The notes below the pieces were generated by a model. It was not told the origin of the DNA and searched no databases. It saw nothing but the letters and a program-made list of their open reading frames with translations. Of a stretch of 64,000 nucleotides of DNA, positions 2-59,117 are shown piece after piece. The stretch covers positions 115,193-179,192 of the forward strand of contig CAVYHV010000010.1 in NCBI GenBank assembly GCA_963768425.1. Reading direction: 5' to 3'. Within the stretch, counting starts at the first letter, position 1; the number at the start of each line of letters is the position of its first letter. The DNA is from Candidatus Bathyarchaeota archaeon (GTDB lineage: Archaea > Thermoproteota > Bathyarchaeia > Bathyarchaeales > Bathycorpusculaceae). A program made the translations under genes and the position numbers.

Positions 2-151
2 GCAGTCGCGGTTTTCGGTTTAGCTTCACAAGAAGCATTTGCAGCAGTCATAGGACCGTTAATAGAGGTGCCGGTTATGATAAGCTTAGTGAACGTGGCA
101 CTCTGGATAAGAAAGAAGTATTATGCAGATAAGGAGAATGAAGCTAGCTGA
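2..151 (+). CDS. acr3: ACR3-family arsenite efflux permease, 3' end (partial at window edge)
   Basis: Manual translation [41 protein letters not shown]...*; GPLIEVPVM is the ACR3 C-terminal signature; arsC and MIP genes nearby. Confidence 0.9.
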
Positions 152-188
152 AGAAGGTAAGAGGAACCAAACTTCGGAGGCTCAAAAT

Positions 189-365
189 TTGAAAATATAC
201 GTAGGTCTAAAAGAAAAAACTAAGCCTGGAATATTTGAATCGGAAACAGAGCCAACCAAGGAGACTCACCCTCAATACGATATCATTTACGGTCCCTTCA
301 AATCAATAGAAGATGCCGAAAAATACACAAAAGCAATGGGTGAACTAGCCTGTGGTGACAGCTAA
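189..365 (+). CDS. Small hypothetical protein
   Basis: ORF track 123..365; TTG at 189 avoids overlap with acr3; globular-looking sequence (PTKETHPQYDIIYGPF). Confidence 0.5.
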   Translation: MKIYVGLKEKTKPGIFESETEPTKETHPQYDIIYGPFKSIEDAEKYTKAMGELACGDS

Positions 366-388
366 TTTTTTAGACATGGCGAGACTCG

Positions 389-674
389 ATGAGTGAGGAG
401 CAAATTAGAATAAGAAGCTGGGAAGAACTCGAGCGTTTAGTCAGTAGCGGTTTGCCGTAGCAGCTCAAAAATAAACTGTGCCATCTGCGCTTCCCCGACA
501 GTTATGGGCAGACCTGAGTTGATTCGCTCAAGATTGCCTAAAGCGAAGGATTATTTGGATCATCCTTTTGATGACCCTTCCGAAGTGGAGGGAACTGAAG
601 AAGAAAAACTTGAGGCTTTCCGTCGTACGAGAGATGAAATGAAAAAGTGAATAATCGAAAAGTTTAGTTCCTGA
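389..674 (+). pseudogene. Deleted, decayed duplicate of the hypothetical (3907..4236) + arsC (4308..) gene pair
   Basis: 389-445 encodes MSEEQIRIRSWEELERLVS (cf. MNEGHVRIRSWEEFKRLVS); 446-674 is closely similar to ~4550-4786 (CAICASPTVMGRPELIRSRLPKAKDYLDHPFDDPSEVEG...) with TGG->TGA at 648-650. Confidence 0.85.
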
Positions 675-711: not shown

Positions 712-2028
712 TCATGTAATTTTTTTGTGCCGAAACATTATTACTACTGCAGCGATAGCTATAACGACGATCACAACAGCTGCCAGGCAAATAATTTCCA
801 ATGTAGATATCATTGGCTGAGTTCCTTGCGAAGGTGTAGACTTTGTCAGTTGGTTACCAAAAGCGTAAACATAATGATCCCACGATCCCACATAAACGAC
901 CCCGTTCCAAACAGCAGGCGAAGAACTCACATGATTTCCAGTTGTGTACGTCCATATGTTTGCTCCACTGGACGCGTTTAGACAATAAACGTTTCCATCC
1001 CACCCTCCAAAGTAAACGTTGCCACCAGCCACTGCAGGAGAGGAATCAACCCCGTCTTGCGTGGCATAGTTCCAGATTTTCGCCCCGGTTAATGCATTGA
1101 GGCAATAAACGTTTTTGTCTGGGTTTGCCGACTCACCCGTTCCGATGTAAACGTACCCGTTTGCGACTGCAGGGGAAGAGTCAACCCAACTTAAAGTTGG
1201 ATAGCTCCATATTTTTGTTCCGCTTGTCGCGTTAAGGCAATAGACATTATCGTCTTCTGACCCGATGTAGAGGCGACCGTCAACTACTGCAGGTGAAGAC
1301 TGTATGACGTTCCCAGTGGTATAGCTCCAAATTTTCGCGCCAGATGAAGCGTCAAGACAATAAACGTTGCCATTTGAAGAGGCAACATAGATATGATCTC
1401 CAACGACTGCTGGTGAAGACTCCACAAGCCCACCCGTTGAATAATTCCATATTTCGGCGCCATTGGTCGCATCAAAACAGTAAACGTTACCATCCCATGA
1501 GCCCACATACACATAACCATTAGCAACTGAGGGACAAGACTCCACAGTATTTCCGGTTGTGAAATTCCAAACTTTTTCGCCTGTTAAAGCGTTCAGGCAA
1601 TACACGTTACGGTCATAACATCCAAAATAGAGGTAACCGTTGGCAACCGCCATTGAAGAACTAATTGCTGGACCCGCACCCTGAAACCCTCGGCTTGCAG
1701 TAGCGACAGTGAAATTCCATACTTCGGATCCATCTGATGCGTTGAGGCAGTAAGCGATTCCGCCGTCAGAACCAATGTAGAGGCGACCATCAACGATTGC
1801 AGGCGAAGCGCCAACTGGGCTGTTGGTCTTAAAGTTCCATAGTAAAGTGGCGTTAGTTGCAGTTGGTTTGCTGGTTGAGTAACCTGAATGAGTAAGGTCA
1901 TGGTGAAACAGCGGCCAATCAGCCGAAGAAGAATTAACAGATGCAAGTGCCGCTGGAAACAATACAAAACAGAAAAAGACTGATATCGTCAAAATAAAAA
2001 AGACCTGAACATAGTTAGACCTTTTCAT
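712..2028 (-). CDS. Secreted, membrane-anchored PQQ-like (BamB-type) beta-propeller protein
   Basis: Signal peptide, repeated SSPAV..G.VY.GS.D.NVYCLNA..G..IW blades, C-terminal TM plus basic tail. Confidence 0.9.
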   Translation of the reverse strand: MKRSNYVQVFFILTISVFFCFVLFPAALASVNSSSADWPLFHHDLTHSGYSTSKPTATNATLLWNFKTNSPVGASPAIVDGRLYIGSDGGIAYCLNASDGSEVWNFTVATASRGFQGAGPAISSSMAVANGYLYFGCYDRNVYCLNALTGEKVWNFTTGNTVESCPSVANGYVYVGSWDGNVYCFDATNGAEIWNYSTGGLVESSPAVVGDHIYVASSNGNVYCLDASSGAKIWSYTTGNVIQSSPAVVDGRLYIGSEDDNVYCLNATSGTKIWSYPTLSWVDSSPAVANGYVYIGTGESANPDKNVYCLNALTGAKIWNYATQDGVDSSPAVAGGNVYFGGWDGNVYCLNASSGANIWTYTTGNHVSSSPAVWNGVVYVGSWDHYVYAFGNQLTKSTPSQGTQPMISTLEIICLAAVVIVVIAIAAVVIMFRHKKIT

Positions 2029-8923: not shown

Positions 8924-9060
8924 CCGTCTTAACACTTCTTATTCAAAAGCCACGGAATCTTACGTTCAAATACATTGTCTTTTCCAACAATAGGTTATCT
9001 TTCACAAGCATCCCATGATCTGGTTAAAAAAATTCACAGTTTAGGTTGTAGAGATACGAA

Positions 9061-9897
9061 TCAGGTGTTGAGCATATCCGGCAGCTTGACTTCGGGATGA
9101 TGATACCTTTCATTATAAGAGACGATTTTGCCGCAGATTGCTTCTTGTGGGCACCAACTATAACAAGCAAGGCAAGTCTCGCAATGATGCTGCCAAACCG
9201 GTTTTTTGTCCAGTATCTTAATGTTATTGACTGGACAAACTCTTGAACATGTTCCACAGCCGTTGCAGTCCTTATTGGTTTGGAAGCTTTGGTCTGCCAA
9301 AGGTATGAGTTCTCTGAAGGATAGATGCAATGAAGAGTTTGAAAGCTTCCGGTACCTTCTATAAAACGCAGGTTTTATCAAGATAAACAATAGTGGCGCG
9401 AGGAATATTTTGCGCAAGGGTCCACGTGTTTCGAATTTGCCTTTTTTGCGGTCAGCGACAAATTCGCTGATGACTTCAAGTTTCTTTTTCTGGTTAATGG
9501 ACATTTTTTGTTGTTTTTCCACGTGAAGTTTCTTGTTGGTCATCTTCACTATGAACCCCGCAGCAAGTTCGCCGCCGCGAGATTTGATTGCCCTTCTCAG
9601 ATTCTCGATTGTGCTTCCAGGCATATCTCCACAAGTACAAACGGCAAAAATGTACTTTGAACCAATATTTGCCAGTTTGTCTACAAATCTGGTAACTATA
9701 AGCGGTAGCCCACAGTCGTTTGTTGCGTAAAAAACTGGAAAAACAATCCCAACCGCAGCAGCTGTGGGCTCTATGCTTTCTCTGTTTCCTACCGATTGCA
9801 TGGATATGAGGTGCCCGCTGGTTTTTTCCACTAAATCTTTTGCAATCATCAGTGAATTTCCTGTTCCAGAGAAATAATAGATTTCAGTTTCAGTCAT
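9061..9897 (-). CDS. EFR1-family flavodoxin-ferredoxin fusion
   Basis: YYFSGTGNS, GIVFPV and C-terminal CNGCGTCSRVCP / CETCLACYSWCP. Confidence 0.9.
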   Translation of the reverse strand: MTETEIYYFSGTGNSLMIAKDLVEKTSGHLISMQSVGNRESIEPTAAAVGIVFPVFYATNDCGLPLIVTRFVDKLANIGSKYIFAVCTCGDMPGSTIENLRRAIKSRGGELAAGFIVKMTNKKLHVEKQQKMSINQKKKLEVISEFVADRKKGKFETRGPLRKIFLAPLLFILIKPAFYRRYRKLSNSSLHLSFRELIPLADQSFQTNKDCNGCGTCSRVCPVNNIKILDKKPVWQHHCETCLACYSWCPQEAICGKIVSYNERYHHPEVKLPDMLNT

Positions 9898-10043
9898 GAA
9901 ATGGCGACAGCATCCTTAATTGGCACATATTCAGTTTGTGTCTGATCACGGATTTTAATAAGTCTATGGCAATTGAAGCACTCTTCATTTATAGTAAGTG
10001 ATGCAAACGGAGACAACAACTAACTACTTCACAGAGGTTGGCT

Positions 10044-10320
10044 TTATGCAGGTGCAACTGTAACCTGTAATGGGTGGTTTTCTAAGCTCGGCATATCTCC
10101 TTTTAGCAGGCGATTGCTATGGGCGGGATATTAAAGATCCGTCTTTTCTCATTTTTGAGCAAAGAGCTGCCAGCCTCTAAACTTGTCTGGCTAGTTAAAG
10201 CCGACTTTTAGAAATTGAGATGGTTCCACCTTGAATTCCCACCTGATCCTCTGTGGAATCTGCACTCTTTCCCCTTCTGGAGCTTGCCGCTAAGGCTACC
10301 TTCTAGTTCCTGAGGATCGT
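10044..10320 (-). pseudogene. Decayed small DNA-binding protein gene, probably tandem AbrB/MazE-like
   Basis: Manual minus-strand translation across frameshifts and stops: KLQKG/RVQIPQRIRWEFKVEPSQFLKVGFN*PDKFRGWQLF/MRKDG.../GDMPSLENHPLQVTVAPA*; the RVQIP..IR and KDG patterns resemble swapped-hairpin domains. Confidence 0.5.
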
Positions 10321-10990
10321 CTAATTTTTTCAAAAATTGTCAAAAATTGTCATTTTTTGTCAAAATTTGTATCAACCTGCAAATGATTCAAGCTTCTCTA
10401 CAAGAGAGCAACCCAAACCACAAACAAAAAAATTTTCCACGCCAAAAAACACAAATCACTATCCGCTCGCACTTTTTTTGGCGGTGAAGGACGGTAATGG
10501 ACTTCTGTAGACTTTAAAGGACGGTAAAGGACGGTAGGCGACGGTAATGGACTTTAAAGGACGGATGCTGCAGATGATTCAAGCTTATCCACAAAAAAGC
10601 AACCCAAAACACAATCAAAGAAATCTGCCGCCAAAAACGCCGAAAAAAACATTTTGGCAACACTTCTGCAGGCTTCTTCCTCCGCGACTTTTTGGGATGT
10701 TTTGGGATGTTTTAAGATGTTTCGAGATGTTTTGGGATTTTTTGGGAGACCTGTTGCAGATGATCCAAGCCCCAAACCAGAAAAACAACCCATTTCACAA
10801 GAACAAATTTCTTTCAAACTGCACTCTTTCCACTGGAGCCTGCCTCTAAAGGTTATCGATCGATTCTTCGAATTGTCAATTTGTGTCAAATCATGTCAAA
10901 ATGTTTCAAATTGTGTCAAATAAAGTATCAACCTGCAGACGATTCAAGCTTCTCTAAAGCAACCCAAACCACAAACAAAAAAAATAAGCT
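10321..10990. repeat. Array of four ~185-bp units, each a conserved core plus a 10-bp-period tandem repeat
   Basis: Core (c/t)tgcaRaYgatYcaagc..caaccca..cacaa at 10377, 10568, 10754, 10933; preceded on + by CAAAAATTGT-type (10331-10370), ACGGTAAAGG-type (10481-10564), TTTGGGATGT-type (10691-10748) and TTGTGTCAAA-type (10871-10920) decamer arrays. Confidence 0.9.
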
Positions 10991-11081
10991 GGAACTTTCA
11001 CCTCGCAAGAACTTCAGCGGAAAGCAAGACTACCCGCCACTTTGAAAAACGTGAAGCATTTGGGGTTATTTTTGCGAGTTC

Positions 11082-11222
11082 CTAGTGTCCTGAGGTGCTG
11101 TATAGGACGCGGTTGCCGCATTTTTTGCATTCGTAATACACTATTATTTTTTGGCTGTTGTGCACGGGCTCCATTTTTTCATAGCAGTCTGGGCAAAGAA
11201 GGGTTCGACTACGCGGTTTCAT
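11082..11222 (-). CDS. Zn-ribbon micro-protein (46 aa, below ORF-track cutoff)
   Basis: MKPRSRTLLCPDCYEKMEPVHNSQKIIVYYECKKCGNRVLYSTSGH*: CPDC...CKKCG. Confidence 0.7.
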   Translation of the reverse strand: MKPRSRTLLCPDCYEKMEPVHNSQKIIVYYECKKCGNRVLYSTSGH

Positions 11223-11330
11223 AAAATCATACTCAGGTTTAATGGATATAACTCTTCTCACAAAGGCACAGGTTGATTAAGACCAAAAAAAGAAAAAAGA
11301 TTGATATGGGAATAAGTGCTTTTCTGCGTT

Positions 11331-11981
11331 TTAAGTTTGGGTTTTGCTTGCTGAGCCTGTTGGCATTCCTGGGGGCAGATCTGGGAAGTTTTGGCTGACT
11401 CTTTGTTCTGCAACGGTTGCTGCTTCAGTTAGAATTTTTGCTGCGTCTTCGTTTACGTTGTCGAAGTTCAGTGACATTCCGGTGCTTGTTCCTGCTTCAA
11501 ACATTAAGCCGCTTAGCATGTCGCCGATGCTGCCGAGTTCGCCTTCTGCTTCAGGTAAGACACCGCCAAGTCCCGTGCTGACGCTGCGGAGTACGCCGAT
11601 GCATGGCCCAAGGGTTGCGACGACGTCGCCTAGTTCCGAAACAGTCTTTATGCGTAGTGAAATCTGGTCGAGTGCAAGACGCGCGTTCATGATGATTTTT
11701 CCCATCTTACGTATTTCAGCGAGTTCAGTGGCGTAGATGTTGGCGTGAGGTGTGTCGTGATGTGTGTATGCGTCAACTAGTTTGGAGAATAGGGCTTTGT
11801 CTTTTTGTGTGAAGCGGTCGTTTGCCTGGTCGAGCTTGGCTATTTGCATGTCGAGTTTTCTCACGGCTAAGTCCAAGGCTGGTTTTAGCGCGGGTGGAGG
11901 AGTGATGGTGTTTCTTATTGTTGTTGACAGTGATTCTGTATCTCTTTTCTGTTCCCATTTTTTAGAAAAATTTTCAGACAT
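11331..11981 (-). CDS. cdvB: CdvB/Snf7 (ESCRT-III) family protein
   Basis: Coiled core, A.IYATELAEIRK, LDQISLRIKTVSELGD, DAAKILTEA...FPDLP tail. Confidence 0.9.
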   Translation of the reverse strand: MSENFSKKWEQKRDTESLSTTIRNTITPPPALKPALDLAVRKLDMQIAKLDQANDRFTQKDKALFSKLVDAYTHHDTPHANIYATELAEIRKMGKIIMNARLALDQISLRIKTVSELGDVVATLGPCIGVLRSVSTGLGGVLPEAEGELGSIGDMLSGLMFEAGTSTGMSLNFDNVNEDAAKILTEAATVAEQRVSQNFPDLPPGMPTGSASKTQT

Positions 11982-12387
11982 GTTAACATCCTCTTGAATG
12001 TTCATGTAGCGAATGAGCATTTAATTGTTGCTAACATGCACATATATATGTGGAAACAAAAAACAGGTTTTTTCTACGAATTTCTAAATTGCGGCTTGTT
12101 GAAGCAGGTTAATTTGCAACTTTTAGCTCTGCAACTTGTATCCCACAAGGTTTTACCATATATGAGGTGATACCATAATGGTGCTACCGCAAAGAAAGTA
12201 AAGTTACGGCCTTCCGCAAAGATAGTTACCGACGACAAAGGCTCGCCACCACGAAGCAAAAAGAAAGAGTGAATTCCTAATAAGCAAGGACCTTACATGT
12301 TGAGTTTCTGTTTCCTTTTTGGGAAAATTGCGCTAAGGAAACCTTAAAATGATATATGTTTCCTATTTTAGCATGAATTAGCTTGCG

Positions 12388-13692
12388 GTGAACTGTTTGA
12401 CTACCAATTACGCGCCTCTGGTCGGGGACAGTTACGCTCCTGAAAAAATACGTGTAATCATTCCTGTGGGTGGAAAAGCGACAAGGCTGCTGCCTTTGAC
12501 GGCTGAAACAAGTAAAGCCTGCTTGCGTTTGCTTAACAGGCCGCTGGTTGAGTTTTCGCTGCTGTCGTTGGCAAATCAGGGGATAAGAAACTTTATCTTT
12601 GGCGTGAAAGGCTACACGAACTACCGCGACCTATATGACTACTTTGAGTCTGGGTACGGCTTCAGCGCCCGCTACAACATTAAGCCGCGGATCCACATAA
12701 AGTATCAGCCCAACGTCGATGATTTGGGAAGCGCAGATTCCGCAAGGATAAATTTAGATTACTATGAGCTCAACAACCCTGTTTTCGCAGTGCAGGGCGA
12801 CAACATCTTTGACATCAATTTGAAGAGCCTCCTTGATTTCCACAAAGAGAAATGTTCAGCGTTGACAATTGTGCTTCGTGAAGTCGACAACGTTGAAGGC
12901 TTAGGCATAGCAGACATCGACAAGAACGGACGCATTGTGCGCTTCGTCGAGAAACCTTCAGCTAAAGACGCACCCAGCAACCTTGCGAACACAGGCTTGT
13001 ACGTTCTGTCGCCCGAAGTGAAAAAGATCTTCAGCGAAAAAGGAGTACAGCAAATAGTGAAGGAAAAGAACCGCTTGGATTTCGGCTACGACTTCATCCC
13101 ATACGTGATTCAAACAGGGCGCCCAGTGTTCGGTTACACGCTGCACGGCAACTGGTTTGACATCGGCACCCCAAGAAGCTATCTAGAAGCCATGAAGAAG
13201 CTTCTATACGGCGGCTTTCCAGCGGTGAGCGACTTCGGCGGACGACTGGAAGATGGAAGCTTAGTTTGGGTGCAGGGAGAAAGCGGCGACTCAGAGAAAC
13301 GTCGTCAGGAAATCATACATAAGATTAAGCAGAAGAAAATCACCCTTGAAGGCGCGGTTCTGATTGGGAGACACTGCGAGATAGATGACGGCGCAAGAAT
13401 CGTGAATTCATGCATTGATAACTTTACACGAATAGGCAAAAACGCGTTGGTGGTTAACTCCTCCGTTATGGACAGGGTTATCATTGGGGAACGCGCGGAG
13501 ATTCATGACAGCATCATCGGAAGACACGTAGTTGTGAATTCAAGCCAGCGTTGCCCAACCAAAATAACCGCAATTTCAGTTGTCGCGGACGACGTTCGGC
13601 TGGAAGAAGGCTGCACGCTTGCAGCCTCAAAAATCTACCCGCACCAAACCATACGAGGAGAATTCCAGAATCAAACAATAATGGTAAACTGA
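12388..13692 (+). CDS. NDP-sugar synthase (sugar-1-phosphate nucleotidyltransferase with LbH domain)
   Basis: GGKATRLLPLT, FVEKP, WFDIGT and C-terminal hexapeptide repeats. Confidence 0.9.
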   Translation: MNCLTTNYAPLVGDSYAPEKIRVIIPVGGKATRLLPLTAETSKACLRLLNRPLVEFSLLSLANQGIRNFIFGVKGYTNYRDLYDYFESGYGFSARYNIKPRIHIKYQPNVDDLGSADSARINLDYYELNNPVFAVQGDNIFDINLKSLLDFHKEKCSALTIVLREVDNVEGLGIADIDKNGRIVRFVEKPSAKDAPSNLANTGLYVLSPEVKKIFSEKGVQQIVKEKNRLDFGYDFIPYVIQTGRPVFGYTLHGNWFDIGTPRSYLEAMKKLLYGGFPAVSDFGGRLEDGSLVWVQGESGDSEKRRQEIIHKIKQKKITLEGAVLIGRHCEIDDGARIVNSCIDNFTRIGKNALVVNSSVMDRVIIGERAEIHDSIIGRHVVVNSSQRCPTKITAISVVADDVRLEEGCTLAASKIYPHQTIRGEFQNQTIMVN

Positions 13693-15066: not shown

Positions 15067-16840
15067 TTAACTTTCAATCGCTTTGCCCAAATCCTTGAAG
15101 TTTATTTTTCCGTGGAAGTAACTGTGAAGAAGCGTCGGCAAATCTTTGATTGGCGTTCTCACCTGCAGCCAGCTGTCCCTATCCCTGACCGTTACTGTTT
15201 CGTCTCTGAGGGTATCGTAATCGATAGTCACTCCCAACTGTACGCCTGCTTCGTCAGCCCTTGCATAGCGTCTGCCAATAGAGCCTGCCTCATCTAACTC
15301 AGTCATTAAGCCCTCGTTCGCCAACTGCCTCTGCACTTGAACGGCTTTCGTATCCAAACCATCCTTGCTCATCAACGGGTAAACCCCAACTTGAATTGGC
15401 GCAATAGATCTTGGGAAACTCATGACGACCCTGTCTTCTTTTAAGCCATAAGCGTACTCCAATGCAACGTAGAAGAGCCTGTCTGAGCCGAAGCTGGGTT
15501 CCACGACATGGGGTATGAAGCGTGTGCCGCGGACAATTGTCTTTTGCACGCTAACGTCGACTTGGTCGGGTTTGATTTCATAGTTTTCAACTACGTAGAA
15601 GCTCTGCTGCTTCATAGCGTCAGCAACCTCCTGAGCAGGTGCTTTAGCAAGTAGCACCGCAACCTTTGCGGCTTCTCCCTTGTAGACGGGCCCGAGTTTA
15701 GCCATTATAGGTTTGACGGTGAGCATTTCCTTTTCAACGGGACTATCATATTCTTTGTAAACGGTCATGTCTACTCCGCTTGCTTGCATGTGGCATTTTA
15801 AGTCATAGTCTGTTCTGTAAGCATGTCCAGAGACTTCTACCCAGCCCCAACGGTCAACCAACACCTCCTGATCGAAGCTTTGGCTTGAATAATGCGCTTT
15901 TTCCCAAGTTAATTTCTCGATGAACCGCTGCTTCTCCGCTGGAACGCCAAGGTCCACCAAGAGCCTTTTCGCTAATGCCATGAAAAATGCTTGCCATTCG
16001 GAAAGGATTACGTTGCGATCAAGCGCCTCCTTAACGGTAAGGTTTGTTGTGTCTTCGCATTCTTTGAGCCTCGTTTCACAAAGCAGAATGGGCAACACTT
16101 CTTTTTCCACCTCTGCGAGCAAATCGCAAGCGGGTTCTTCAGGGTCAAAGAAAAACTCCAAGTCTGAAATCGTGAATTCCCTGAGCCTAATCAAACCTTG
16201 CCTAGGCGAAATCTCGTTGCGCAAAGCGTGACCGATCTGCACAACTCCGAAAGGAAGCTTTTCCCGTGCACCTGTGTAGAGACGGTTGAACTCGACGAAG
16301 ATATTCTGTGCCGCTTCAGGCCTGTCCATAGCCAACAGCGCCCGAATATGGACCAATAGTGGTTTCAAACATTGTCAAGTAACGTTGAGGTAAGCCGAAT
16401 TTGCCGCCGCAGTCGGGACAAACGACGCCGTGCCGTTCGATCTCTTCGCCAATCTCTCCCAAAGTCATTTTTTCTGCTTCGGCTGAACTAATGCCTTTTT
16501 CTTCAAGTAAATGGTCAGCTCGGAAACGCGTGTGACAATTTTGGCACTCAACCATCGGTTCCTTGAAATGGTCCACATGACCCGATGCCTCAAAGACTTT
16601 AGCTGGTGCGATTACGGATGACTCCATTTCGTAAATGCCGATTTTTTTAACCAAAACCTCCCGAAGCTTAGCTTCAATGTTTTGTTTCAGTCTTGCGCCT
16701 AGCGGACCGTAAGTTACAAATCCACCACTGCCGCCGTAAATTTCAAATGAAGGCCAGAAAAATCCTCTGCGACGTGCCAACTCGTTTATAGCCGTGAACT
16801 TGTCGCATTCTATTTTTGAACATCTTGCTTCGCTGGTCAA
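15067..16840 (-). CDS. glyS: Glycine--tRNA ligase (archaeal/eukaryal type), split by one frameshift near 16325
   Basis: RRGFFWPSFEIYGG, SGHVDHF, RPEAAQ, RNEISPRQGLIRLREF, EPSFG, SIGRRYARADE; the two ORFs join at GYG/RPE. Confidence 0.92.
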
Positions 16841-30256: not shown

Positions 30257-33200
30257 CTAAGTCATTGGAAATTCGATCTTGAATTGTGTGCCTTTTCCGA
30301 GTTCACTTTCAACAGTCACTTTGCCGTCCAATGCTTCAGTGAGCTTCTTCACTATGGCTAATCCGAGACCTTGACCTTTCGCTTTGGTGGTGAAGAGCGG
30401 CTTGAAAAGCTTGTCTTTCACATCGTCAGGTATACCTTGGCCTGTGTCGGCAACCGTTACCATTATCCTTTTGGCGTTGCAGGTTGCGGTTATGGTTATT
30501 TTTCCACCATTAGGCATGGCTTGCGCGGCGTTTGACGTCAAATTTGTAAGTATCCTTGTCAAAAATAATGGGTCGCTGTTGATTTTTGGGAAATCAGGTC
30601 TTATGTTGACTGAAACAGTTATGTTCTCTGGAATACTCATTGCTGACAAAACTTTTTGGACAGTTTTTTGAAGATCTACCTCTTGCAGTTGAGGTTTCGC
30701 TGCTTTAGCAAAGTCTTGCAGATCCAGCACAATCTTGTTAACGTAGAGCAACTGTTCCTCAATGTAGCCAATGCTTTCATTTATTTCCTTTTTCACAGAG
30801 GTGTCAGGCAGCGATTCAAGGCTCTTTTTGGCCAAATATAGTTCGCCTGTGATCGATTGGAGCGGATTACGAATGTCGTGTCCAACCATACCTGCTGTTT
30901 CGCCAATGGCTGCAAGACGTTCAGAATCCCGGAGTTTTTGAGTTCGTTCTTCAACTAACGCCTCTAAATGTTCAGAGTATGTCTTTAACTGTTTTCCATT
31001 TTCTTCTAGCATTTCAAGCATTTTGCTGTTGGCTAAGGCAACCGATGCAATTTCTCCGAAAGCCGTTGCCATTTCAGCGTCACGTTTCGTGAAGCCACGG
31101 GTTTGTTAGCCAATCCAATAACGCCGACTGTTCTCTTTTCGATCGTCAATGGTGCAAACATTACGTTCTGGAGTAGCACGTGACCATCAGGTGAGAATTT
31201 TTGCCATTTACTTTTTGGAAAATCATTTTCAATGGCTACTTTCCCAGAATTGTACACTTCGCCGCGGAGTCCTCGAATAGGCATAGGAAGCGATGGATCA
31301 ACCGTGCAGGGAAGCCCTCCTGAATCCAAGAATAGGACTTCGTTTTCTTTCCCGGTGTCACTTAAGAGGGCAACGTAGCCTGCGGTTGCTCCGATTAATT
31401 CTTTGCAAGCGTCAAATATCGCTCGCGCAGAATCGGGAAATTCTTGATGCTGCAAAACTGCTCTAGAACCCTTCAATAAAGCAGAAATCTCAGATTCGCG
31501 AAGTTGTGATTCTTCGAGCGAAATAGATAATTCTTGCTCAATTTTTTTGCGCTCCGTAATGTCACGGTTGCTGGCGCGGCGACCTATCCATTTGCCGTTA
31601 TCGTCGAAGACAGCTTTACATGTATGCGAAATCCAACGTGTCTCTCCATCGAAAGTTATGATTCGAAAATCAACGGCGTGCAATTCTTCTGAGCTTATCA
31701 AATCAAAATGTGGACCTACAATTGATTTATCTTCAGGGTAGATGATTTTGGTTAGAAGTTTGGGGTCTTTTAGAAACTCATCAACATCATAGCCTGTGAT
31801 CCTTTTACATGAAGGCGAAACGTAAATCAGGTTTCCGTCGGGTGCAATCCAGTACTCCCAATTATATGCGAAGTCAGCAACCGTTCGGAACTTGACTTCG
31901 TTTTCCCGAAGGGCTTCTTCAGCAATGTACCTTGACAAAGCCAATGCCAAACGGTCAGCCACTCTTTCCCACATCTGAATCGTTTCAAGAGTAAACATGT
32001 TTTTTCGTTTGTCATTTAGTTGAAGCAGCCCTAAACGAGTATCTCCAATGCGCCAATGGAATAAGAGCGAGTGACTCATATCCTTCACTGTTGCAACGGT
32101 TGCGCGTAGTTCCTTGACGGTCTGCAGTGGTTGTTGTTAGCAAGAAGTTGCGTAGTACTGTTAGTCCAGAAACTTCCGTTTTCCGTGAAGAATTCTTTGG
32201 ATGGATCAAATCGTCCCGCATACAACATTTCCACACATACATTCTAGAACTGGTCTGCCTTTTGAATCTCGAATTACATATCCAGATTCGTCGGATGTAC
32301 ACAATTTGTTTTCAAGTTTGACGTGTTCAGGCTGGGAACCCTTTTGTTTCATAATATGGATAATCATCCCCTTTTTTGAGCCTGATGCCTACAGCTTCAC
32401 AGCCACATTGTTTCTGGAAGAAATCCAAAGCCCCTTCAATTAGATCTTGAGAGCCAGTAGCTGCGTTAGCTATTCTTAGGAATTCACCCATGATTTCGCG
32501 TTCAGTTTCAGTTTTCTTGCGTTCAGTAACGTCTTCGAAGACTGCTGCAAAATAACCTTTTGCTGGGCAATAAACTGAAATACTTAGCCACAGCCTTAAA
32601 GGTTTAAAGAAATATTTCAAACTTCTCTTTTTGACCTGTAAGCGCTACTCTTCCGTAAATTTCAAAAATTTCAGGATTTTCTTCTTTTATTCCAGGTATC
32701 GCTTGTGTTACTTTCTTTCCGACCACGACTTCTCTTTTTAAACCGGTTATTCTTTGAAAAGCATCATTAACTTGAAGATAAACCCAGTCAACAGGCTTGC
32801 CTGCATCATCAAATACCATTTGGCAGTAAGCAAAGCCATCAATCATGTTTGCGAAAAGAGAACTGTATTCTGCCTCACTTTTCTTTAACGCTTCTTCATT
32901 TTTTTTGCGTTCAGTAATATCGCTAAACATTGATAAGTTAGCTACGTGTTTTCCATTCTCGTCAAATAATGGTGAAGCATTACAAGCTGCCCACAGAACA
33001 GAGCCATCTTTGCGGCGAAACTCAAATTCGCTATAAAGAACCTGTTCTTTTTCCAAGCTTTTTCTTACCTGCAAAGCTTGTCTTCTTTGTTCTTCTTTGG
33101 TCATGAGTTCAAAGCTGGATTTACTGAGAAGTTCTTCGGTTGAGTAGCCGAACATTTGAGCTAGCCTGTCGTTGACAAAAGTGTGGGTTCCATCGGGTTT

Positions 33201-36200
33201 AGCGATGACTATGCCTTCGGCTGCAGTCTCAACGATTGTTCGGTACTTTTGCTCGCTTGCAGCCAACGCTTCTTCAGTTTTCTTTCCTTCAGTGATATCT
33301 TTCAAGATGGCTAATAGAGTCTCAACATTGCCGTTAACGGCGAACTCGGGAACAATTGTGTATTGATAACATTTCGTTCCTTCTCGGCTTGGAAATTCAA
33401 ATTCGCCTTTTTGTTCCTTGCCAGCTTGAAAAACATTATGGAGAATCTGGGTCCATTGGTTAGCGAATTTTGGCGGCAGTTGTATTTCTTGATTTGTCCT
33501 GCCCATGAAATTCTTAATGGGACAACCCGGTTGCTTTTTCAAAAGCTGAATTGATGAACAAGTAACGCAGGTTTTTGTCTACCCTTGCTATGATATCTGG
33601 GGAGTTTTCTGTGAGCGTCCGGTACTTTTCTTTTTCGAGGCGCAATTCCTCTTCATGTTTTTTCAGTGCGTCGACATCTATGAAGGATAAAACGGCGCCA
33701 TCTATTCTGTTGTCTTCAGTTACGTACGGTCGAACCCGCATTTGATAAATGCGTCCATGCTCGTCAATGACTTCTCTATTTTCTGCGCCAAGGGTTAAGA
33801 TTACTTTTGAGGTGATTTTCGCTAAATCAGGAATTGGAATGGCAAGCTGCAAGTTAGAGATTGGTAGCCCGGTGTCTGAAGGATTGAGATTAAGAATTCT
33901 TTGAGCAGACGGTGTAAAAAGTCGGATCTTAAGGTTGTCGTCAACCATTACGACCGCCGGATCAATGTTTCTATTCTAAATTCGCTAGGTTGTCGTTTAG
34001 TCTGTTGAGAGCTTGATTTCGGTTCTTCATTTCATCATTCAAGGTCGTTAATTCTTCGTTGCTTGATTGAAGTTCTTCTTTGGCTGTTTCCAATTCCTCG
34101 TTTGTGCTTTGCAGTTCTTCGTTACTTGACTGTACTTCTTCCATGGCGGCTCTGAGCTCTTCGTTGGTTGCTTCCTGATTCTCAATAACAGTCTGTAGAT
34201 ACTGCTTAGAAGACTCCAATTCTTCTTCAAGATCACGAATCTGGCTGTTCTTAACGTTCTCGCGTCCAACAGGGGTAGCCGATAGCTCAATAGTCTGACG
34301 CAAATGTGCAGCTGCAGAACTGACATCTTCAAACAACACAAGGAAGAATGGCTCAACGTATTCAGCGGCGCGTAAGGGTATTACCTGAATATTAAGTGTC
34401 CTCGGTTGATCCCCATATTGAAAGCGTAGGGCTTCTACCTTGACAGGCTTGTTCTCTTTTTTTGCCCGATAAACCGCTGTTTGAACATCTGCTCGCAACT
34501 CTTTCCGAATCAGTTTTGCCAAATTCAAACTTGCCTGCCCTGATTCAGGAGAAAGGTAAGCTGTCACGTTTCCGCGAAAAACAAGAATGTCTAATTCATT
34601 GTTGACTAGCAAAGCTGCGGGAACATATTCCGTTATTAATAGTCGGTCAACTTCGTCCCGTAAAAGAGAGATGGAGTCGTTTTTTGCTGGTTGCTTTAGA
34701 GCTGGTTTTCTGGAAAAAGGAACCGTCGATGCAAAGCCGAAGTTGACACGGGGCTCGGCATTCTTTTTCACGTAAATATAACCTTTCTTGAATACTGGTT
34801 CGAAAAGTGCGGTGGATTTTCCGATGCTTTCAGATTCGCCTAGAACAAGAAAACCGTTTGGTCTTAGCGCGTAATGTAGGATGGATATTATTTTTTCTTG
34901 AAGTTGCGGATCGAAGTAGATGAGCATGTTTCTGCAGCTGATTAGGCTTAGGTTAGAGAAAGGAGGGTCTGCAGTCAAGTCTTGTTTCGCAAAAACGCAC
35001 TTGTCACGGATGAATTTCGCAATTTGATAGCTTCCGTTAAAGCTTGTAAAAAAGTGTTTCAGGCAGCTCTCGGAAACATCAGCGTCTATGCTTTTCGGGT
35101 ATATTCCTTGACGAGCCCTCTCAATGTTCTTTTCGTTCACATCAGTCCCGAAAATCTGAACCTGGGTTTCACCTTTGCCTGTTTCCTCGAGGAATTGTTG
35201 AAGCGCAATTGCAAATGAGTAGGCTTCTTCGCCTGTGGAACAGCCTGGAATCCAAATTCTGACGGGTTCTTTCAAAGCCAAGTTCTTTAGAAGCTGAGGA
35301 AAAAGTTTTTCCTTCAAAACCGAAAACGTGTCGGGTTCCCTGAAGAAGCTTGTAACGCCAATTAACATGTCGTTAAAAAGTGCTTGCAGTTCAGCGGGAT
35401 GTGTTCCTAAGTATTCAGCGTACTTGGCTATGTTATCGATATGGCTTATTACTATGCGGCGATTAATTCGCCTGTGGATGACCGTTCCTTTGTAGTGAGT
35501 GAAATCAACGTTGAATGCCAATTTCAGTAATGTGAAGATTCTCCGCAAACCCTTTTCTTTGCCAGGTTTGGGTTCCTGAGGCACGATTTCGGCTCGAACC
35601 AAATGGGGGTGTTTAGCAATTCTTGAAAGTTCTTTTGCAATCTTCTCAGGATACATGATAAAATCGACGGCTTCAGCTGAAATAGCGCTCTGCGGCATGT
35701 CAGCGTACTGGGCGGAGTCTGGGTCCTGCGCGAAAGTGATTCCCGCTTCAGCCCTCACAGCCTTGAGCCCCTCGGTTCCATCCGTCCCAGTTCCAGAAAG
35801 AACAATCCCAATAGCTTGAGTCTTTCGTTCTGTGGCAAGGGAACTTAAGAAAGCGTCAATGGGCCGGATAAATTTGCCTTTTGGGTTGAGCTTTAAGCAA
35901 CCGTCTACCAAAGTCATCGTAGATCCTGGCGGAATCACATAAACATGGTTGGGTTCAACACGCACACCATCCTTAACTTGGAGAACAGGCATTCTTGTGA
36001 ATCTCGACAAGATGTCGGTCAGCATGCTTTCCTGACCTGCGGCAAGATGCTGAATAATCACAAAAGCCAAACCTGTATCAACAGGCAAAAACTCAAGCAG
36101 CACCTTGAATGCGTCCAGACCGCCAGCAGAAGCGCCAACTCCAACAATCGGAAATTCAGCAACTTCGTTTTCGAAAGAGGTTTGCTTGCTCGAACTGCTT

Positions 36201-47432: not shown

Positions 47433-47670
47433 TTACTTTCTCACCTACTTATTCTCTGTAACTTCAGACTATTCTTTCGTGCAGATTTAAGATTTATCTT
47501 TCAATTTTCTTACTAAAATGTCAATGTGCTTCTGAAAATTATTATTTTGGTCAATTTAAATCAAAATCAGAAAGAATAGCTTGTTAAATTGGGGATTGAA
47601 TTGGAAGAATTCAAGCGTTATGCTAGTGTTTAAAAGAACAATTGCGCCTTTTAGCAACGGAGAAAAAGTC

Positions 47671-49002
47671 ATGCCGTCGTTCCAAACTGTTCGCGGAATG
47701 CGTGATTTGCTCGGTGAAGAAGCACAAGCTTTTACAGGCATCATTGGCAAAGCTAGGGAAACAGCCTTGCTTTACGGTTACAAAGAGGTTATCACGCCTG
47801 TTGTTGAGTCGTTTGAGTTGTTGAGTGCCAAGTCAGGCGAGGAAATTCGCCAGCGTATGTTCATCTTTAAGGATTTGGGTGAGCGTCAAGTGGCCCTGCG
47901 CCCAGAATTCACGGCTTCAATCGCCCGGCTAGCAACAACTGCGCTCAAAAACGAACCTAAGCCTCTTCGACTGTTTTCAGCGGGAAGCGTCTACCGTTAT
48001 GATGAACCGCAGAAAGGCCGCTACCGAGAGTTCTACCAATCAAATTTTGAGCTGATGGGTTCCAGCCGACCTGAAGCCGACGCCGAAATCGTCCTGCTCA
48101 CAGACAGCTTTATGAGGTCATTATGTTTGCGCGGCTACGCCTTCAAAATAGGGCATATAGGTGTCGTGCGGGGAATCCTTAGCCAGGAAAACGTCGATGA
48201 AAAAACCCAGAACGCTATTTTGCAACGAATGGACAAAAAAGAGTATAACGAAGCGTTCAAACTCGCTCCGACGGAACATTGCCGAAACATGCTTGAGGGA
48301 CTGTTACAACTGAAAAGCGATAACTGCTTTGAAACCGTCGAAAAAATCAAGGCTTACGTTGCCGCCAATGAGATCGCGAAGGCTGCCGCAGACAACCTCG
48401 GCGACATTCTCAAACTTGTGGTTGATGGGGGATGCCCAATCCAAGTTGTTGAACCTGCTTTCGCGCGGGGACTCGAATATTACACAGGCATGATTTTTGA
48501 AATTTACATTCCTGAGTTGGATATCGCATTGGGCGGCGGCGGTAGATATGACAGGCTTATTGAGTTATTCGGCGGTGAAGCAACGCCCGCAGTAGGCTGT
48601 GCTCACGGAATTGACCGCATCGCTTTGGCACTCCAAGCCCAAAAAAACGTCTTAAGCACAGTGGGCAAAAAACGCGTTCTTGTGCTCGCAGTAAACGACC
48701 CTCTCAAAGGCGAAGCACTAAAAATTGCACAGGCACTCCGGCAGTCAGGGGTCGGAGTAGAGTTCGAGGTTATGGGTCGCAAGATGGGCAAGGCACTAGA
48801 GGACGCCGACAAACGCAAGGTTGATTACGCCGTCATTGTCGGCGAACGCGAACTCAAAGATGGCGCCGTAATGCTTCGGAACTTGGCGAAAAGAGAACAA
48901 ACCATCGTTCCAATCAAAGAACTGATGAAAAAATTTAGTTGCCAGCCCAGCAAAGAAACGCTAAAAAACGTTAGCAAAAACAATTTACCTTCCGCAGCTT
49001 AA
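47671..49002 (+). CDS. hisS: Histidine--tRNA ligase
   Basis: RGMRD, LRPEFTA, YRYDEPQKGRYREF.Q, RGLEYYTG, GGGRYD. Confidence 0.97.
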   Translation: MPSFQTVRGMRDLLGEEAQAFTGIIGKARETALLYGYKEVITPVVESFELLSAKSGEEIRQRMFIFKDLGERQVALRPEFTASIARLATTALKNEPKPLRLFSAGSVYRYDEPQKGRYREFYQSNFELMGSSRPEADAEIVLLTDSFMRSLCLRGYAFKIGHIGVVRGILSQENVDEKTQNAILQRMDKKEYNEAFKLAPTEHCRNMLEGLLQLKSDNCFETVEKIKAYVAANEIAKAAADNLGDILKLVVDGGCPIQVVEPAFARGLEYYTGMIFEIYIPELDIALGGGGRYDRLIELFGGEATPAVGCAHGIDRIALALQAQKNVLSTVGKKRVLVLAVNDPLKGEALKIAQALRQSGVGVEFEVMGRKMGKALEDADKRKVDYAVIVGERELKDGAVMLRNLAKREQTIVPIKELMKKFSCQPSKETLKNVSKNNLPSAA

Positions 49003-52591: not shown

Positions 52592-53383
52592 TTATATTTG
52601 GTCGGTTTCTATTTTTTTCGCCATTTCCGCAAGAATCTTCGTGAAGGGGTGGTCAGGTTTATCCTCTGCGAAGATAAAGTTTCCTTCAGCCCGCAGAACC
52701 TCACAGAAGCAGGGTACTAGTCCCAGAAGCGGCACTTGGTATGCGTCTTTGATTTTGGCGCTCATCTCCGCTTTCTTTGCTGTGGCTGTGGCAGATCCAT
52801 CCAACACCTTGTTCAGAACCAAACCCGTCTTCTTCTCAAACAGGTTGTAGAGTTCAACAAGCATGCGTTTGGTTCCATCTACGTCAGAACGGTCACCTGT
52901 TGTTGCTACAATCACGTAATCAGCGGCGACAATCGCGTTTATCGAAGAGTACTGCAAACCCGGAGAGGTGTCGAAGAACAAGTAATCGAATTTTTTGTTG
53001 GCAAGCAACGTTTCCTTCAACGCAAGCAGCCGGCCTAGGGCACGCATTTCCCATTTTCTGTCTTTTGACGACATATCGCGGATGGCTTCAGTCGCGGGGT
53101 TAGCCAGGGAAGCGTAAAATTTGCCTTTCCCAGAAAGTCGCTTGCTTAAGTCGAAAAGCACAGTGTCGATGTCTGCCGTGTTATTTAAGTAGTCGTTAAA
53201 CCAGTGCTCAACGCCTTGAGCGTTCAAAATCGCAAACAAGCTCGGCGCACGAAAATCCAAGTCGAAAACGCAGACCTTCTTACCTAACTTTGCAAAAGTT
53301 GCTGCCAAATTCACGGAGAGCAGCGTTTTACCTGTTCCGCCTTTATACGAATGAACTGCGATAATCTTACTCATCTGATTCAA
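52592..53383 (-). CDS. MinD/ParA-family ATPase
   Basis: Deviant Walker A KGGTGKT, DLDF.AP, DTSPG, LNK. Confidence 0.92.
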   Translation of the reverse strand: MNQMSKIIAVHSYKGGTGKTLLSVNLAATFAKLGKKVCVFDLDFRAPSLFAILNAQGVEHWFNDYLNNTADIDTVLFDLSKRLSGKGKFYASLANPATEAIRDMSSKDRKWEMRALGRLLALKETLLANKKFDYLFFDTSPGLQYSSINAIVAADYVIVATTGDRSDVDGTKRMLVELYNLFEKKTGLVLNKVLDGSATATAKKAEMSAKIKDAYQVPLLGLVPCFCEVLRAEGNFIFAEDKPDHPFTKILAEMAKKIETDQI

Positions 53384-53763
53384 CTCCTTGCCTCAGGATC
53401 GACGAAAAAGTACGCCTTCCTTCCTTTACGTTCCTTCTTAAGATAACCCATTATTACGAGCTGGTTAAGATAAGCACTTTCGACCGCGCGGGCACGAGTT
53501 GTCGTTACAGAAATCTCTTCTGCTGTCGCGCGTCCACATCTACATATCGTCATGGCGGTCTTACGAAGATGATCCGGCATAGATAGAAGTGTCATAACGT
53601 CCAGAGATGCGTCAGGCAACATTGTGGTTCGGCTTTGATTGACATCACTGTTTTTTTGAATCTCGATGATGACTTCCATCTTTTCATTTAGCTTCTCGAG
53701 GCTTTCTTCGATTTTCTCAAGAATTGCTATCGGCCCCTTGGTTGTTAATTGTTGATCTTTCAT
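53380..53763 (-). CDS. Coiled-coil plus HTH transcriptional regulator
   Basis: ATAEEIS..T.RARAVESAYLNQL..MGY...RKGRKAYF; overlaps the MinD start. Confidence 0.8.
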   Translation of the reverse strand: MKDQQLTTKGPIAILEKIEESLEKLNEKMEVIIEIQKNSDVNQSRTTMLPDASLDVMTLLSMPDHLRKTAMTICRCGRATAEEISVTTTRARAVESAYLNQLVIMGYLKKERKGRKAYFFVDPEARS

Positions 53764-53962
53764 GACACAACCTCTATGGTTTGTTTTGCACATCTACAGT
53801 TCGCTTATGTGTTTATTAAGTATTACGAAACAGTAGTATATATTTTAAACAGGTAAATCACAAAACAAAACGACAAACTTGGCCAAAACAACCTTCAAAA
53901 ACATTAAACAATATAATGGAAACTAAAATTTTTGGTTAACCCAAAATAAACTAAGTGGGAGT

Positions 53963-57443: not shown

Positions 57444-59117
57444 GAGACCGTGTGAAAAGTCTTCTCTTAATCGCCTAGAATCCCGTTAACCTTAAATCTA
57501 GACACATAGCAATGGCTGACAAAGAGCGTTGGTCAGACGATGGACAACGAAAATGACAGCTATGTAGAAGGGTTATCCAGAAGCCAAACGTTCCTGCTGC
57601 CTAAAACCATAGAAGAATACGTACAAACGGACAACCCGGTCAGATTCATAGATGCCTACGTAAATACGCTTAACATGGAAAAGTTAGGCTTCACCCACTC
57701 AACACCGCAAGACCTTGGAAGACCATCATACAACCCAAAAGACCTCTGCAAACTCTACCTCTACGGAGGCCTAAACCACATCCGATCAAGCAGAAAGCTT
57801 GAGCGAGAATCCAAAACTAATCTTGAATGCATTTGGCTTCTCAAAGGCTTAGCACCCGATTTCAAAACTATAGCAGATTTCAGAAAAGACAATCCGCTGG
57901 CTATAGGTGCCTTATTCAAAGAATTTGTAGCTTTCCTAAAAGACCTCAGCCTCTATGAAGCAAAACAAGTAACCGTAGACGGCACCAAACTGCATGCCGT
58001 CAACTCCAACGATAAAGCCTTTACACTCAAAGAGCACTTGCAAAGAGAATAAAGGTCATGGAAAAATCAGTAAAACATTATCTGGAAGAGTTGGATGCCC
58101 AAGATGAGCAGGAAGCATCTGACGAGCACCAAGCAGGTAGCGAAGCAGGTCAAGATGCTAAGGCTTTTGAAGGAGGACAAACTTAGCGGCTTTGCTTGAG
58201 AAAAAAGCAGAAATCTGAAGCAATCCTTGACAAAATGCAAAAGAGTCGTCAAAACGAGGTTGCTTTGACCGATCCGGATTGTCGACAGATGATGAGTCAT
58301 GGCAGAGTAGAATCCTGCTATAACATGCAGGCAGCTGTAGATTCAAAAAACCACCTCATCGTTAACTACTTGGTGACTAACGAAGCCTCAGACCTAAATC
58401 AGTTAAGCGCGTCGCTATAAGCGCTAAAGAAACACTGGGTGTTGAGCAGATTGATTGTGTTTCAGACAAGGGCTATTTTGATTTTATACAGATTAAGCAA
58501 TGTGTCGATAATGGAGTTATCCCTTATGTTGCAGTAAAACACTCTGGAAGCGGTGGCAGCCTTGTGTCACCAGAGTTTAGGGCTGACAAATTCCGATATG
58601 ATAAGGGTGCTGATCTGTATGTTTGTCCAGCTGGGCAGCGTCTTTACTTTTACTGCTGTACGCCTCAGGACGGGATGAATAAACGAATTTACAAGTGCCA
58701 AAAGGATGTCTGCTCTTCATGCCAGTTTTTTATGACTAAGTGTACAGGCAATAAGAATGGACGGTTGATTTGGCGGTGGGTGCATGAGGATGTTGTCGAT
58801 GATATGAAAATGCGGATGAGGTCTCATCCTGAAGTTATGGGTGAGCGCAAAAATGTCGTGGAGCACACGTTTGGTACAATTAAGAGAGCTTTTGGTGCGC
58901 CTTATCTTTTGCTTAAAGGTCTTAGAAAAGTCAGTGGAGAGGTTGGGTTGCTTTTGTTTTCTTATAATTTGCGAAGAGCTCTAAACATTCTTGGAGTCGA
59001 GACTCTTATTCAGGCGCTAGGCAAAAGATAAGACGTAATAAAACGATGGAATCGACAAAAGAGTATTGGATGATTATCCAAGCTTTCAATCGATAATTTG
59101 ATTTTTTACACGGTCTC
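57444..59117 (+). mobile_element. IS1182-family insertion sequence
   Basis: TIRs GAGACCGTGTGAAAA (57444-57458) and TTTTACACGGTCTC (59104-59117); GTTT duplicated on both flanks. Confidence 0.92.
57540..59031 (+). pseudogene. IS1182 transposase, frameshifted at about three sites
   Basis: GRPSYNP, SSRKLE, PDFKTIADFRK, DGTK, TDPD, YN.Q, DKGY, VEH.FG.IK, YNLRR across fragments. Confidence 0.9.

Follow-up and report, generated by a model that had tools for sequence, protein, structure and literature searches.

Conserved cores followed in register by 10-bp decamer arrays form a dispersed family of intergenic DNA elements in Bathyarchaeia

The 64-kb window analyzed here (64,000 nucleotides from contig CAVYHV010000010.1 of a Candidatus Bathyarchaeota archaeon) contains four copies of an intergenic DNA element, termed units, which are arranged head-to-tail on the minus strand from 10984 to 10318 (Table 1). 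They lie between a flavodoxin/4Fe-4S gene (9061-9897, minus strand) and a 59-aa zinc-ribbon open reading frame (ORF) with a Snf7-like gene (11082-12020, minus strand). Each unit comprises oligo-T blocks, a conserved core of ~50-65 bp that ends in TGCA, and a 60-90-bp array of decamers. The core motif GCTTGRATCRTYTGCA was observed four times in the window, on the minus strand only (10378-10393, 10569-10584, 10755-10770 and 10934-10949), against 0.32 expected copies, and none of 100 shuffled sequences reached four. Tandem Repeats Finder (TRF) places one period-10 array after each motif (10330-10370, 10515-10564, 10690-10747 and 10874-10921). The start-to-start distances are 191, 186 and 179 bp. 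The first-pass annotation of this DNA had described the four units with this spacing and their named decamers, a common TTGTG..TGGGTTG block and a GTTTTTGGCG..ATTT block that precedes units 1 and 2; the motif search and the TRF arrays recover the former, and both blocks are visible in the sequence.

Table 1. Parts of the four-unit region, with positions in the 64-kb window; nhmmer values refer to the core profile described in the text.
Feature	Position	Strand	Description
Unit 4 core	10934-10984	-	oligo-T 10977-10984, TTGTGGTTTGGGTTGC, middle with a 5-base deletion relative to the family, GCTTGAATCGTCTGCA; nhmmer match 10989-10928, E 1.4e-10
Unit 4 array	10874-10933	-	6 decamers: GGTTGATACT, then five of type xxxTTTGACA; G-A-C class; in register after TGCA
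Spacer, unit 4 array to unit 3 core	10811-10873	-	TTAGAGGCAGG and GGAAAGAGTGCAG blocks, which recur after unit 1
Unit 3 core	10755-10810	-	most diverged of the four; nhmmer match 10807-10750, E 6.3e-06
Unit 3 array	10685-10754	-	7 decamers of CAAAACATCC type; A-T-C class, final decamer G-T-C; 85% matches in TRF
Unit 2 core	10569-10650	-	two upstream oligo-T blocks, T7 10643-10649 and T5 10633-10637; nhmmer match 10630-10559, E 2.2e-15
Unit 2 array	10479-10568	-	9 decamers of TTTACCGTCC and TTTAAAGTCC types; G-T-C class
Unit 1 core	10378-10449	-	upstream oligo-T blocks, T6 10444-10449 and T7 10426-10432; nhmmer match 10439-10368, E 3e-14
Unit 1 array	10318-10377	-	6 decamers of ATTTTTGACA type; G-A-C class
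Tail after unit 1	10169-10317	-	repeats the spacer blocks

The core recurs in other genomes. A scan of 185,579 species-representative genomes with the pattern TGGGTTG, a 6-22-base gap and GCTTGNATCNTNTGCA returned 45 loci (given L numbers below), for which the chance expectation, estimated for a genome set of uniform composition, is ~18 matches. Twelve of these, which come from two archaea and a variety of bacteria, show odd gap lengths, share no other feature, and are chance matches by their behavior. The remaining 33 loci belong to 14 metagenome-assembled genomes (MAGs), 13 of which are labelled Bathyarchaeia or Bathyarchaeota, and 32 of the 33 have a 15-base gap. An nhmmer profile built from those 32 sequences detected, at E below 1e-4, 50 units, which are the four units of the window and 46 in the 33 loci; the totals per genome are lower bounds. 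The first-pass annotation had tied its account to the core recurring elsewhere with 10-bp arrays, and an array nearly always follows the core in the 46 further units. Two or three units of the same orientation, mostly 173-391 bp apart, were found in 11 loci, and one MAG carries at least seven units in six loci (one locus with two), which are scattered on three contigs at unrelated places. The window's own genome is not among the scan matches; its closest relatives are L009, L011 and L037, with 71-89% DNA identity over the units. Several unit-bearing MAG contigs are 0.25-1 Mb long, and mis-assembly is therefore not the explanation. A blastn search of 10250-11050 against plasmids and phages gave no match, with a low-complexity filter that may mask the arrays and not the core. 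One typical unit (E 8e-15) with a G-T-C array lies in L025 (DATHCJ010000062.1), in a MAG labelled Limnocylindrales (Chloroflexota), which suggests a mis-binned Bathyarchaeia contig or a transfer.

On the core strand, the 50-row alignment shows a core of ~65 bp that reads oligo-T, GTTCTTTGTG, TTTTGGGTTGC, TTTTTTG, seven variable bases, GCTTGAATCGTTTGCA and then GGTTG(C/A)GTCA. Five columns are invariant across the 50 units and 24 more are at least 90% conserved, giving 29 in total. An oligo-T run of at least five bases lies within 40 nt before TGGGTTG in 41 of the 50 units and within the 38-nt core in 36. The T6 block is ~26 bp from the TGCA array boundary and also ~26 bp from the left edge of the core; the usual archaeal distance from TATA box to transcription start is ~26 bp. 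Three candidate TATA-like placements, on either strand, were compared by eye with the promoters of the window, and none was convincing. The bases that flank T6 (upstream GGGTTGC) differ by eye from the AAACC-TTAAAA-like boxes before the window genes. The earlier proposal that GAGAAGCTTGAAT represents a B recognition element and TATA box (BRE/TATA) was not borne out: its first half lies where the core varies most and, by eye, it does not resemble these boxes either.

The array begins at the base directly after TGCA, and its register is kept throughout. Over the 60 bases after the core, lag-10 identity exceeds that at all other lags from 4 to 15 in 46 of the 50 units (the best lag is not 10 in L001-2064, L012, L018 and L033) and lies above the 99th percentile of random windows in 34. 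A strict array caller, which requires at least three similar decamers after the first, accepts 40 units; the ten that fail include the weakly periodic L008 (two units), L035, L029-2277, L037-754 and L001-2835. With the first decamer counted, 25 of the 40 called arrays are 60 or 70 bp long, and lengths range from 40 to 150 bp (4-15 decamers). An expanded array was observed at L019 (1-219), where at least 14 decamers, mostly perfect copies, run into the contig start; arrays of this kind probably break short-read assemblies.

A common pattern underlies the varied decamers. In the profile of the 40 arrays, positions 3-5 are 80-90% A/T, G makes up 1% of position 6, and G (82%), T (83%) and C (71%) predominate at positions 7, 8 and 9, respectively. 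Conservation within an array is 0.92-0.96 at positions 7-9 and 0.72-0.84 elsewhere. Among the first six decamers of all 50 units, GTC stands at offset 7 in 114 of 300, compared with 0-1.3% at eight of the nine other offsets and 7% at offset 9, which represents a GTGTC class. The other common triplets at this offset each differ from GTC by a single step (GTG 33, GTA 25, ATC 23, GAC 20, CTC 11 and GTT 9 of 300). A run of three or more A, or of three or more T, is present in 62% of 237 array decamers versus 37% of background 10-mers. In the unit 2 array, GTC occurs eight consecutive times at exact 10-base spacing, and four phased GTC triplets at this spacing were found in the window in unit 2 only (five overlapping matches, 0 expected). 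Across 22 loci, every match to phased GTC runs lay at a detected unit, save one in L042, which on inspection is a diverged unit.

The four decamer types of the window are dialects of this one pattern, because they have a common register, A/T at positions 3-5 and GTC or a triplet one step from it at positions 7-9. The first-pass annotation had grouped units 1 and 4, which do carry a common type (G-A-C), and had set units 2 and 3 apart as unrelated to them and to each other; the kinship of units 1 and 4 stands, and units 2 and 3 prove to follow the same register and pattern. Two-decamer consensus patterns of units 1 and 4, of unit 2 and of unit 3 were found in the window in its arrays only, and 2 of the 11 window matches to the TGACA-type pattern lie outside the arrays versus 1.7 expected. 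Arrays similar to that of unit 3 are also present in L003, L028 and L009. Reverse complementation turns the invariant core block TGTTTTGGG into the unit 3 decamer (CCCAAAACA type; 10596-10611 versus 10698-10713 and 10728-10743), a relation that may be a coincidence or a clue to the origin of that array class.

The sequences between and after the units also repeat. Segment 10257-10275 of the tail recurs at 10816-10834 in the spacer, and 10169-10181 recurs at 10838-10850; nhmmer detected no further core in the tail at E up to 10. A 15-bp inverted repeat (10435-10449 and 10474-10488) with arms that are 87% complementary and separated by 24 nt links the unit 2 array end to the oligo-T blocks of unit 1.

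The units are intergenic and lie amid unrelated housekeeping genes in every orientation. The 127 ORFs that flank them in 32 loci include those for elongation factor EF-1 alpha, serine hydroxymethyltransferase, ribosomal proteins, aminoacyl-tRNA synthetases and S-adenosylmethionine synthetase, and the wider window likewise resembles an ordinary archaeal chromosome, with tRNA-intron endonuclease, histidyl-tRNA synthetase (HisRS)-like and malic enzyme genes. A hand tally of Pfam-supported neighbors gave 15 divergent and 10 co-directional genes upstream and 15 convergent and 9 co-directional genes downstream, with no significant bias. Given these mixed orientations and the units placed between convergent genes in L006, L017 and L021, the units are not simply promoters or terminators of their neighbors. 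The first-pass annotation had suggested a look for co-occurring genes; an all-against-all blastp comparison of 161 flanking ORFs revealed no protein family that recurs beside units. Its statement that the window encodes no cas gene, reverse transcriptase or integrase agrees with a Pfam scan of 93 window ORFs, and no Cas domain was found among the 127 flanking ORFs. The zinc-ribbon ORF (11082-11261, minus strand) shares its strand with unit 4 and ends ~90 bp upstream of it, and no relatives of it were detected among 938 small ORFs of the loci.

Comparison between MAGs shows that related arrays keep the order of their decamer variants and a near-equal copy number. Such pairs are window units 1, 3 and 4 versus L009, unit 2 versus L011, L034 versus L045, and L014 versus L044. 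The fourth unit of L009 combines the upstream spacer and core of window unit 2 with the array of window unit 4. In MAG CAVVIY01, copies are 92-95% identical over their first 129 bases, yet their arrays differ (L004 versus L016 and L042). Unequal recombination between the ~60-bp cores explains this reassortment, with no special enzyme needed. One option in the first-pass annotation was a memory or guide array with constant and variable parts, made by a templated enzyme that adds repeats. The constant-plus-variable anatomy is of this kind, as are arrays that differ beside nearly identical flanks; the kept order and number of decamers across MAGs argue the other way, core recombination accounts for the differences, and no reverse transcriptase, cas or polymerase gene is present in the window or recurs near units. 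This option is largely refuted, and what remains of it is extremely improbable.

CAVVIY01 also harbors copies with a mobile appearance. Three of them are 95-97% identical over 250-275 bp. A 12-bp terminal inverted repeat was reported for L004 only of nine regions checked, and a motif search showed that L004, L010 and L042 have both inverted-repeat ends and that L013 and L016 have the left end alone; all five loci belong to this MAG. These ends were not found in any other MAG, and the window has the motif in forward orientation only. The L004 copy occupies 1914-2187, and the L042 copy (1915-2528) encloses a second, diverged unit. The inverted-repeat-bounded copies form a subfamily confined to CAVVIY01 that resembles MITEs (miniature inverted-repeat transposable elements). 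No target-site duplication was evident by eye at the L004 and L010 boundaries, the 7-bp match at L010 being offset by several bases. The whole family could be regarded as a selfish or neutral modular repeat with an internal minisatellite, spread by transposition in trans and by core recombination, and devoid of host function. Such an origin would accommodate the near-identical copies, the common left end of five loci, the matching right end of three, the second unit inside the L042 copy, the expansion seen in L019 and the core/array exchange between the window and L009. We consider it improbable for the family at large, as terminal inverted repeats are restricted to loci of one MAG and no transposase recurs near the units. 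Moreover, the 29 conserved core columns and, within arrays, the constancy of positions 7-9 beside the drift of positions 1-6 both indicate selection that reaches beyond the element ends.

The units show no sign of encoding a protein or a structured RNA. A Pfam search at E up to 1 gave no match for five ORFs that overlap or adjoin the arrays, and a 111-aa frame resembles translated repeats. Rfam 15, at permissive thresholds, gave nothing better than E = 2.7 for window positions 9000-12500, and its only matches in 17 loci, RNase P and an eL15 leader, lie away from the units. RNAalifold found no consensus fold for the 50 cores (-0.75 kcal/mol, one of six pairs covarying), and eight single-unit folds, both strands included, are no better than those of shuffled sequences (z -1.3 to +1.5). 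In the reading favored below, each unit would be a self-contained cis-acting DNA element, not a protein gene and probably not a structured RNA. Two known classes of repeat array were also considered and rejected. A clustered regularly interspaced short palindromic repeat (CRISPR) array consists of direct repeats of ~23-50 bp with unique spacers of similar length, whereas the 10-bp repeats of the units are contiguous, lack spacers and have no cas genes nearby. In type III toxin-antitoxin systems, a ToxI-like RNA of ~34-45-nt tandem repeats lies immediately upstream of the toxin endoribonuclease gene; the period of the units is 10, no downstream gene recurs, and the downstream neighbors are unrelated and often convergent.

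An unstructured transcript is a different matter. In this account, which we regard as possible though rather doubtful, each unit would be a small non-coding RNA gene whose core serves as promoter, with T6 as a TATA-like element and a start at or near the TGCA/GG junction, and whose product, an RNA of 10-nt repeats, would act as a protein sponge, scaffold or template. The center of T6 lies ~26 bp from the array boundary and the conserved region would extend from about -46 to +6 of such a start, the orientation of core and array is fixed, and the units are independent of their neighbors. Where units stand in tandem, transcription of one could end in the oligo-T of the unit that follows. Inside arrays, runs of five or more T are rarer on the core strand than runs of five or more A (4 versus 10 of 40). 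A hairpin module with compensatory stem changes was also observed downstream on the same strand in L004, L008, L010, L013 and L015, which belong to two MAGs (~2097-2160 in L004, L010 and L013; reverse ~1700-1750 in L008; ~2090-2150 and ~1830-1890 in L015). The module has a core-like start, GGTTGC, and a core-like end (GAATCGTTTGCAGGTTGA in L015), and looks like a variant unit.

Several features do not agree with an RNA gene. A strict 10-nt period has no natural reason in single-stranded RNA, and conserved structure and Rfam matches are absent. No terminator was found after the arrays, as an oligo-T of at least five bases follows only 3 of 39 solitary arrays versus 16% of background windows; the corresponding value for A runs (13 of 39 versus 18%) is only suggestive. 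Runs of T5-T6 terminate archaeal transcription, and such runs lie within arrays of the G-A-C class, including that of window unit 1, where they should terminate a transcript. The GGGTTGC upstream of T6 is, by eye, unlike the AAACC-type element before the TATA-like boxes of the window.

We tentatively favor a reading at the DNA level, in which each unit is a cassette with a core that fixes the register of a helically phased array, and this array would bind or wrap a protein. The period of 10.0 bp is the helical repeat of DNA, the A/T tracts and the G/C-containing triplet lie half a turn apart, and the sequence varies while pattern and register hold, all of which point to DNA as the working form. 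The core would be the recognition and register-setting site. The array, most often 6-7 decamers or 60-70 bp, would present an A/T tract and a GTC-like triplet once per helical turn, with each feature on one face of the double helix along its whole length. A protein oligomer might then bind that face cooperatively, or the DNA might wrap a protein core, over about six helical turns, and the paired oligo-T blocks upstream may stop transcription that enters from that side. The role of such a cassette might be that of a fixed chromatin barrier or boundary, or the control of a promoter in the core. The first-pass annotation had proposed promoter cassettes that carry a phased operator array or make a short repeat RNA; this proposal remains viable apart from the BRE/TATA assignment, and its DNA-level part is contained in the reading favored here.

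The leading candidate for the reader of the array is an archaeal histone tetramer, which would fit best because of the commonest array length and the alternation of A/T with G/C. According to PMC10151503, archaeal histones favor repeats of alternating A/T and G/C motifs, and a 60-bp site, Clone20, is bound by a histone tetramer and has been proposed to act as a roadblock. PMC6136690 states that Bathyarchaeota encode histones and Alba. One feature expected of a histone-tetramer positioning site, an alternation of A/T and G/C with a ~10-bp period over ~60 bp, is present in the arrays. A sequence-specific winged-helix or ribbon-helix-helix protein bound head-to-tail would be an alternative reader.

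Some observations weigh against the proposed binding or wrapping. Pure histone positioning would tolerate any G/C-rich triplet, yet G-T-C is strongly preferred, which points to base-specific reading or to shared ancestry. A sequence-specific reader, in turn, would need paralogs or a loose specificity to serve the variant triplet classes, and no such gene lies nearby. A transcript that starts at the array is compatible with the position of T6 relative to the TGCA boundary, and the compensatory hairpin module after some arrays hints at a same-strand RNA.

The phased-array reading has a more specific and unlikely form, in which the cassettes would be hard-wired chromatin elements whose core places a histone tetramer or a longer particle on a Clone20-like array in exact rotational and translational register. 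If this were true, the units would act as fixed barriers, either confining the spread of hypernucleosomes or gating a promoter in the core, with the decamer dialects tuning affinity, and they would represent the first natural, dispersed family of sequence-programmed nucleosome-positioning elements in archaea. The high-affinity sites bound by histone tetramers, as PMC10151503 presents them for Clone20, are similar to the units in having ~60 bp of alternating A/T-rich and G/C motifs at a ~10-bp period, compared with 60-90 bp in the window arrays. In contrast, Clone20 is an artificial sequence selected by SELEX, without a tandem repeat, whereas the units are made of true decamers with a preferred G-T-C, locked to a core and dispersed as a family.

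Helically phased arrays that small proteins bind head-to-tail include ParR-parC centromeres, OmpR/PhoB tandem boxes and MraZ boxes, in which 10-11-bp direct repeats, each a short recognition part with an A/T-rich spacer, occur 3-10 in a row and are read cooperatively. The units share with them the phased direct repeats, the conserved part next to an A/T-rich part and the disposition on one face of the helix. Unlike the units, which have no adjacent partner gene, these arrays adjoin the gene for their binder or lie within the promoters of its regulon; in addition, single or double sites are absent elsewhere in the window, and many repeat sequences accompany one core.

This likeness bears on the first-pass option of a centromere-like or nucleoid-organizing site. 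Its second half is still viable, and the DNA-level part of it likewise enters the reading favored above. For its first half, a centromere-like partition site, or a loading site for a segregation or structural maintenance of chromosomes (SMC)-type machine by way of a repeat-binding adaptor, the units do contain the parC-like feature of ~10-11-bp tandem direct repeats, and 10-11-bp tandem iterons on one face resemble some plasmid centromeres. The window also encodes a ParA/MinD-type ATPase (52592-53383, minus strand) whose start is overlapped by a 137-aa ORF (53380-53793) with a weak TrmB-type helix-turn-helix match; the two resemble a partition gene pair, on a stretch that looks chromosomal. 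However, a partition operon that adjoins the units, the other parC-like feature, is absent. The nearest ParA-like gene, that of the ATPase pair, is 42 kb distant, and in the 33 loci no gene of this kind is found repeatedly next to units. Furthermore, one MAG has its seven or more units scattered over three contigs, and arrays differ within a genome. Such a site is thus highly improbable. A replication origin was rejected as well. At archaeal origins, several origin recognition boxes (ORBs) or mini-ORBs surround an A/T-rich unwinding region and orc1/cdc6 lies adjacent, with one to a few origins per chromosome. The ORB-like motif TCCAGTGGAAA is at chance level in the window, with one exact match (10827-10837, minus strand, in the spacer before unit 3) and three matches at one mismatch versus 5.1 expected; in the 45 loci it has one match, which is not at a unit. 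No Orc1/Cdc6 domain was found in the window, and the six unit loci of a single MAG exceed the usual number of origins.

In the literature, no description of the element was found, and the closest analogs in print are conceptual only. Pneumococcal BOX elements combine conserved end modules with variable internal repeats and are multi-copy, intergenic and present in either orientation, all of which resembles the units. A minisatellite-bearing MITE of Porphyromonas gingivalis, as outlined in PMC4596501, likewise has conserved ends and variable short internal repeats, and the inverted-repeat-bounded copies of CAVVIY01 extend the likeness to such elements. The units differ from both in that their repeat is only 10 bp long, differs between copies and is phase-locked to the core, in their archaeal lineage, and in the lack of terminal inverted repeats outside that one MAG. 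The class I/II repeats of halovirus HF2, in the account given in PMC8707807, are conserved intergenic repeats of ~58 bp on an archaeal replicon with AT-rich, promoter-like motifs; in that account they precede viral genes and lack decamer arrays, whereas units are also found between convergent genes.

Bathyarchaeia are abundant and mostly uncultured, and their non-coding DNA is essentially uncharted. The core with 60-70 bp of phased decamers is a sharply defined and easily synthesized sequence. If the arrays position histones or another oligomer, an archaeon would write its chromatin or nucleoid architecture into the genome, and the units would provide natural positioning sequences for studies of archaeal chromatin. 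As repeat-RNA genes, they would instead constitute a new RNA class absent from Rfam. Either way, the element marks a lineage and is a likely cause of assembly breaks, as where the L019 array runs into the contig end.

Other features of the window and the loci were recorded. A split DDE transposase (57540-59031, plus strand), composed of a DUF772 part (57540-58052) and a DDE_Tnp_1_6 part (58564-59031), is the only mobile-element gene seen in the window and is likely a remnant of an insertion sequence. A signaling cluster (30257-36103, minus strand) comprises a CheB-CheR fusion (33971-36103), several PAS/GAF ORFs and a histidine kinase (30257-31072). Of the two HisRS-like genes in the window (15067-16368 and 47581-49002), one gives only weak class-II core and anticodon-domain matches, and the other encodes a complete HisRS. 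A HisRS gene (485-1756) adjoins a unit of window unit 2 type in L011. Two units in L015 have an archaeal RNase P RNA (762-1063, minus strand, 183.5 bits) ~900 bp downstream on their own strand, and an ORF fragment of the phage-integrase family (3-671, minus strand) lies beyond it.

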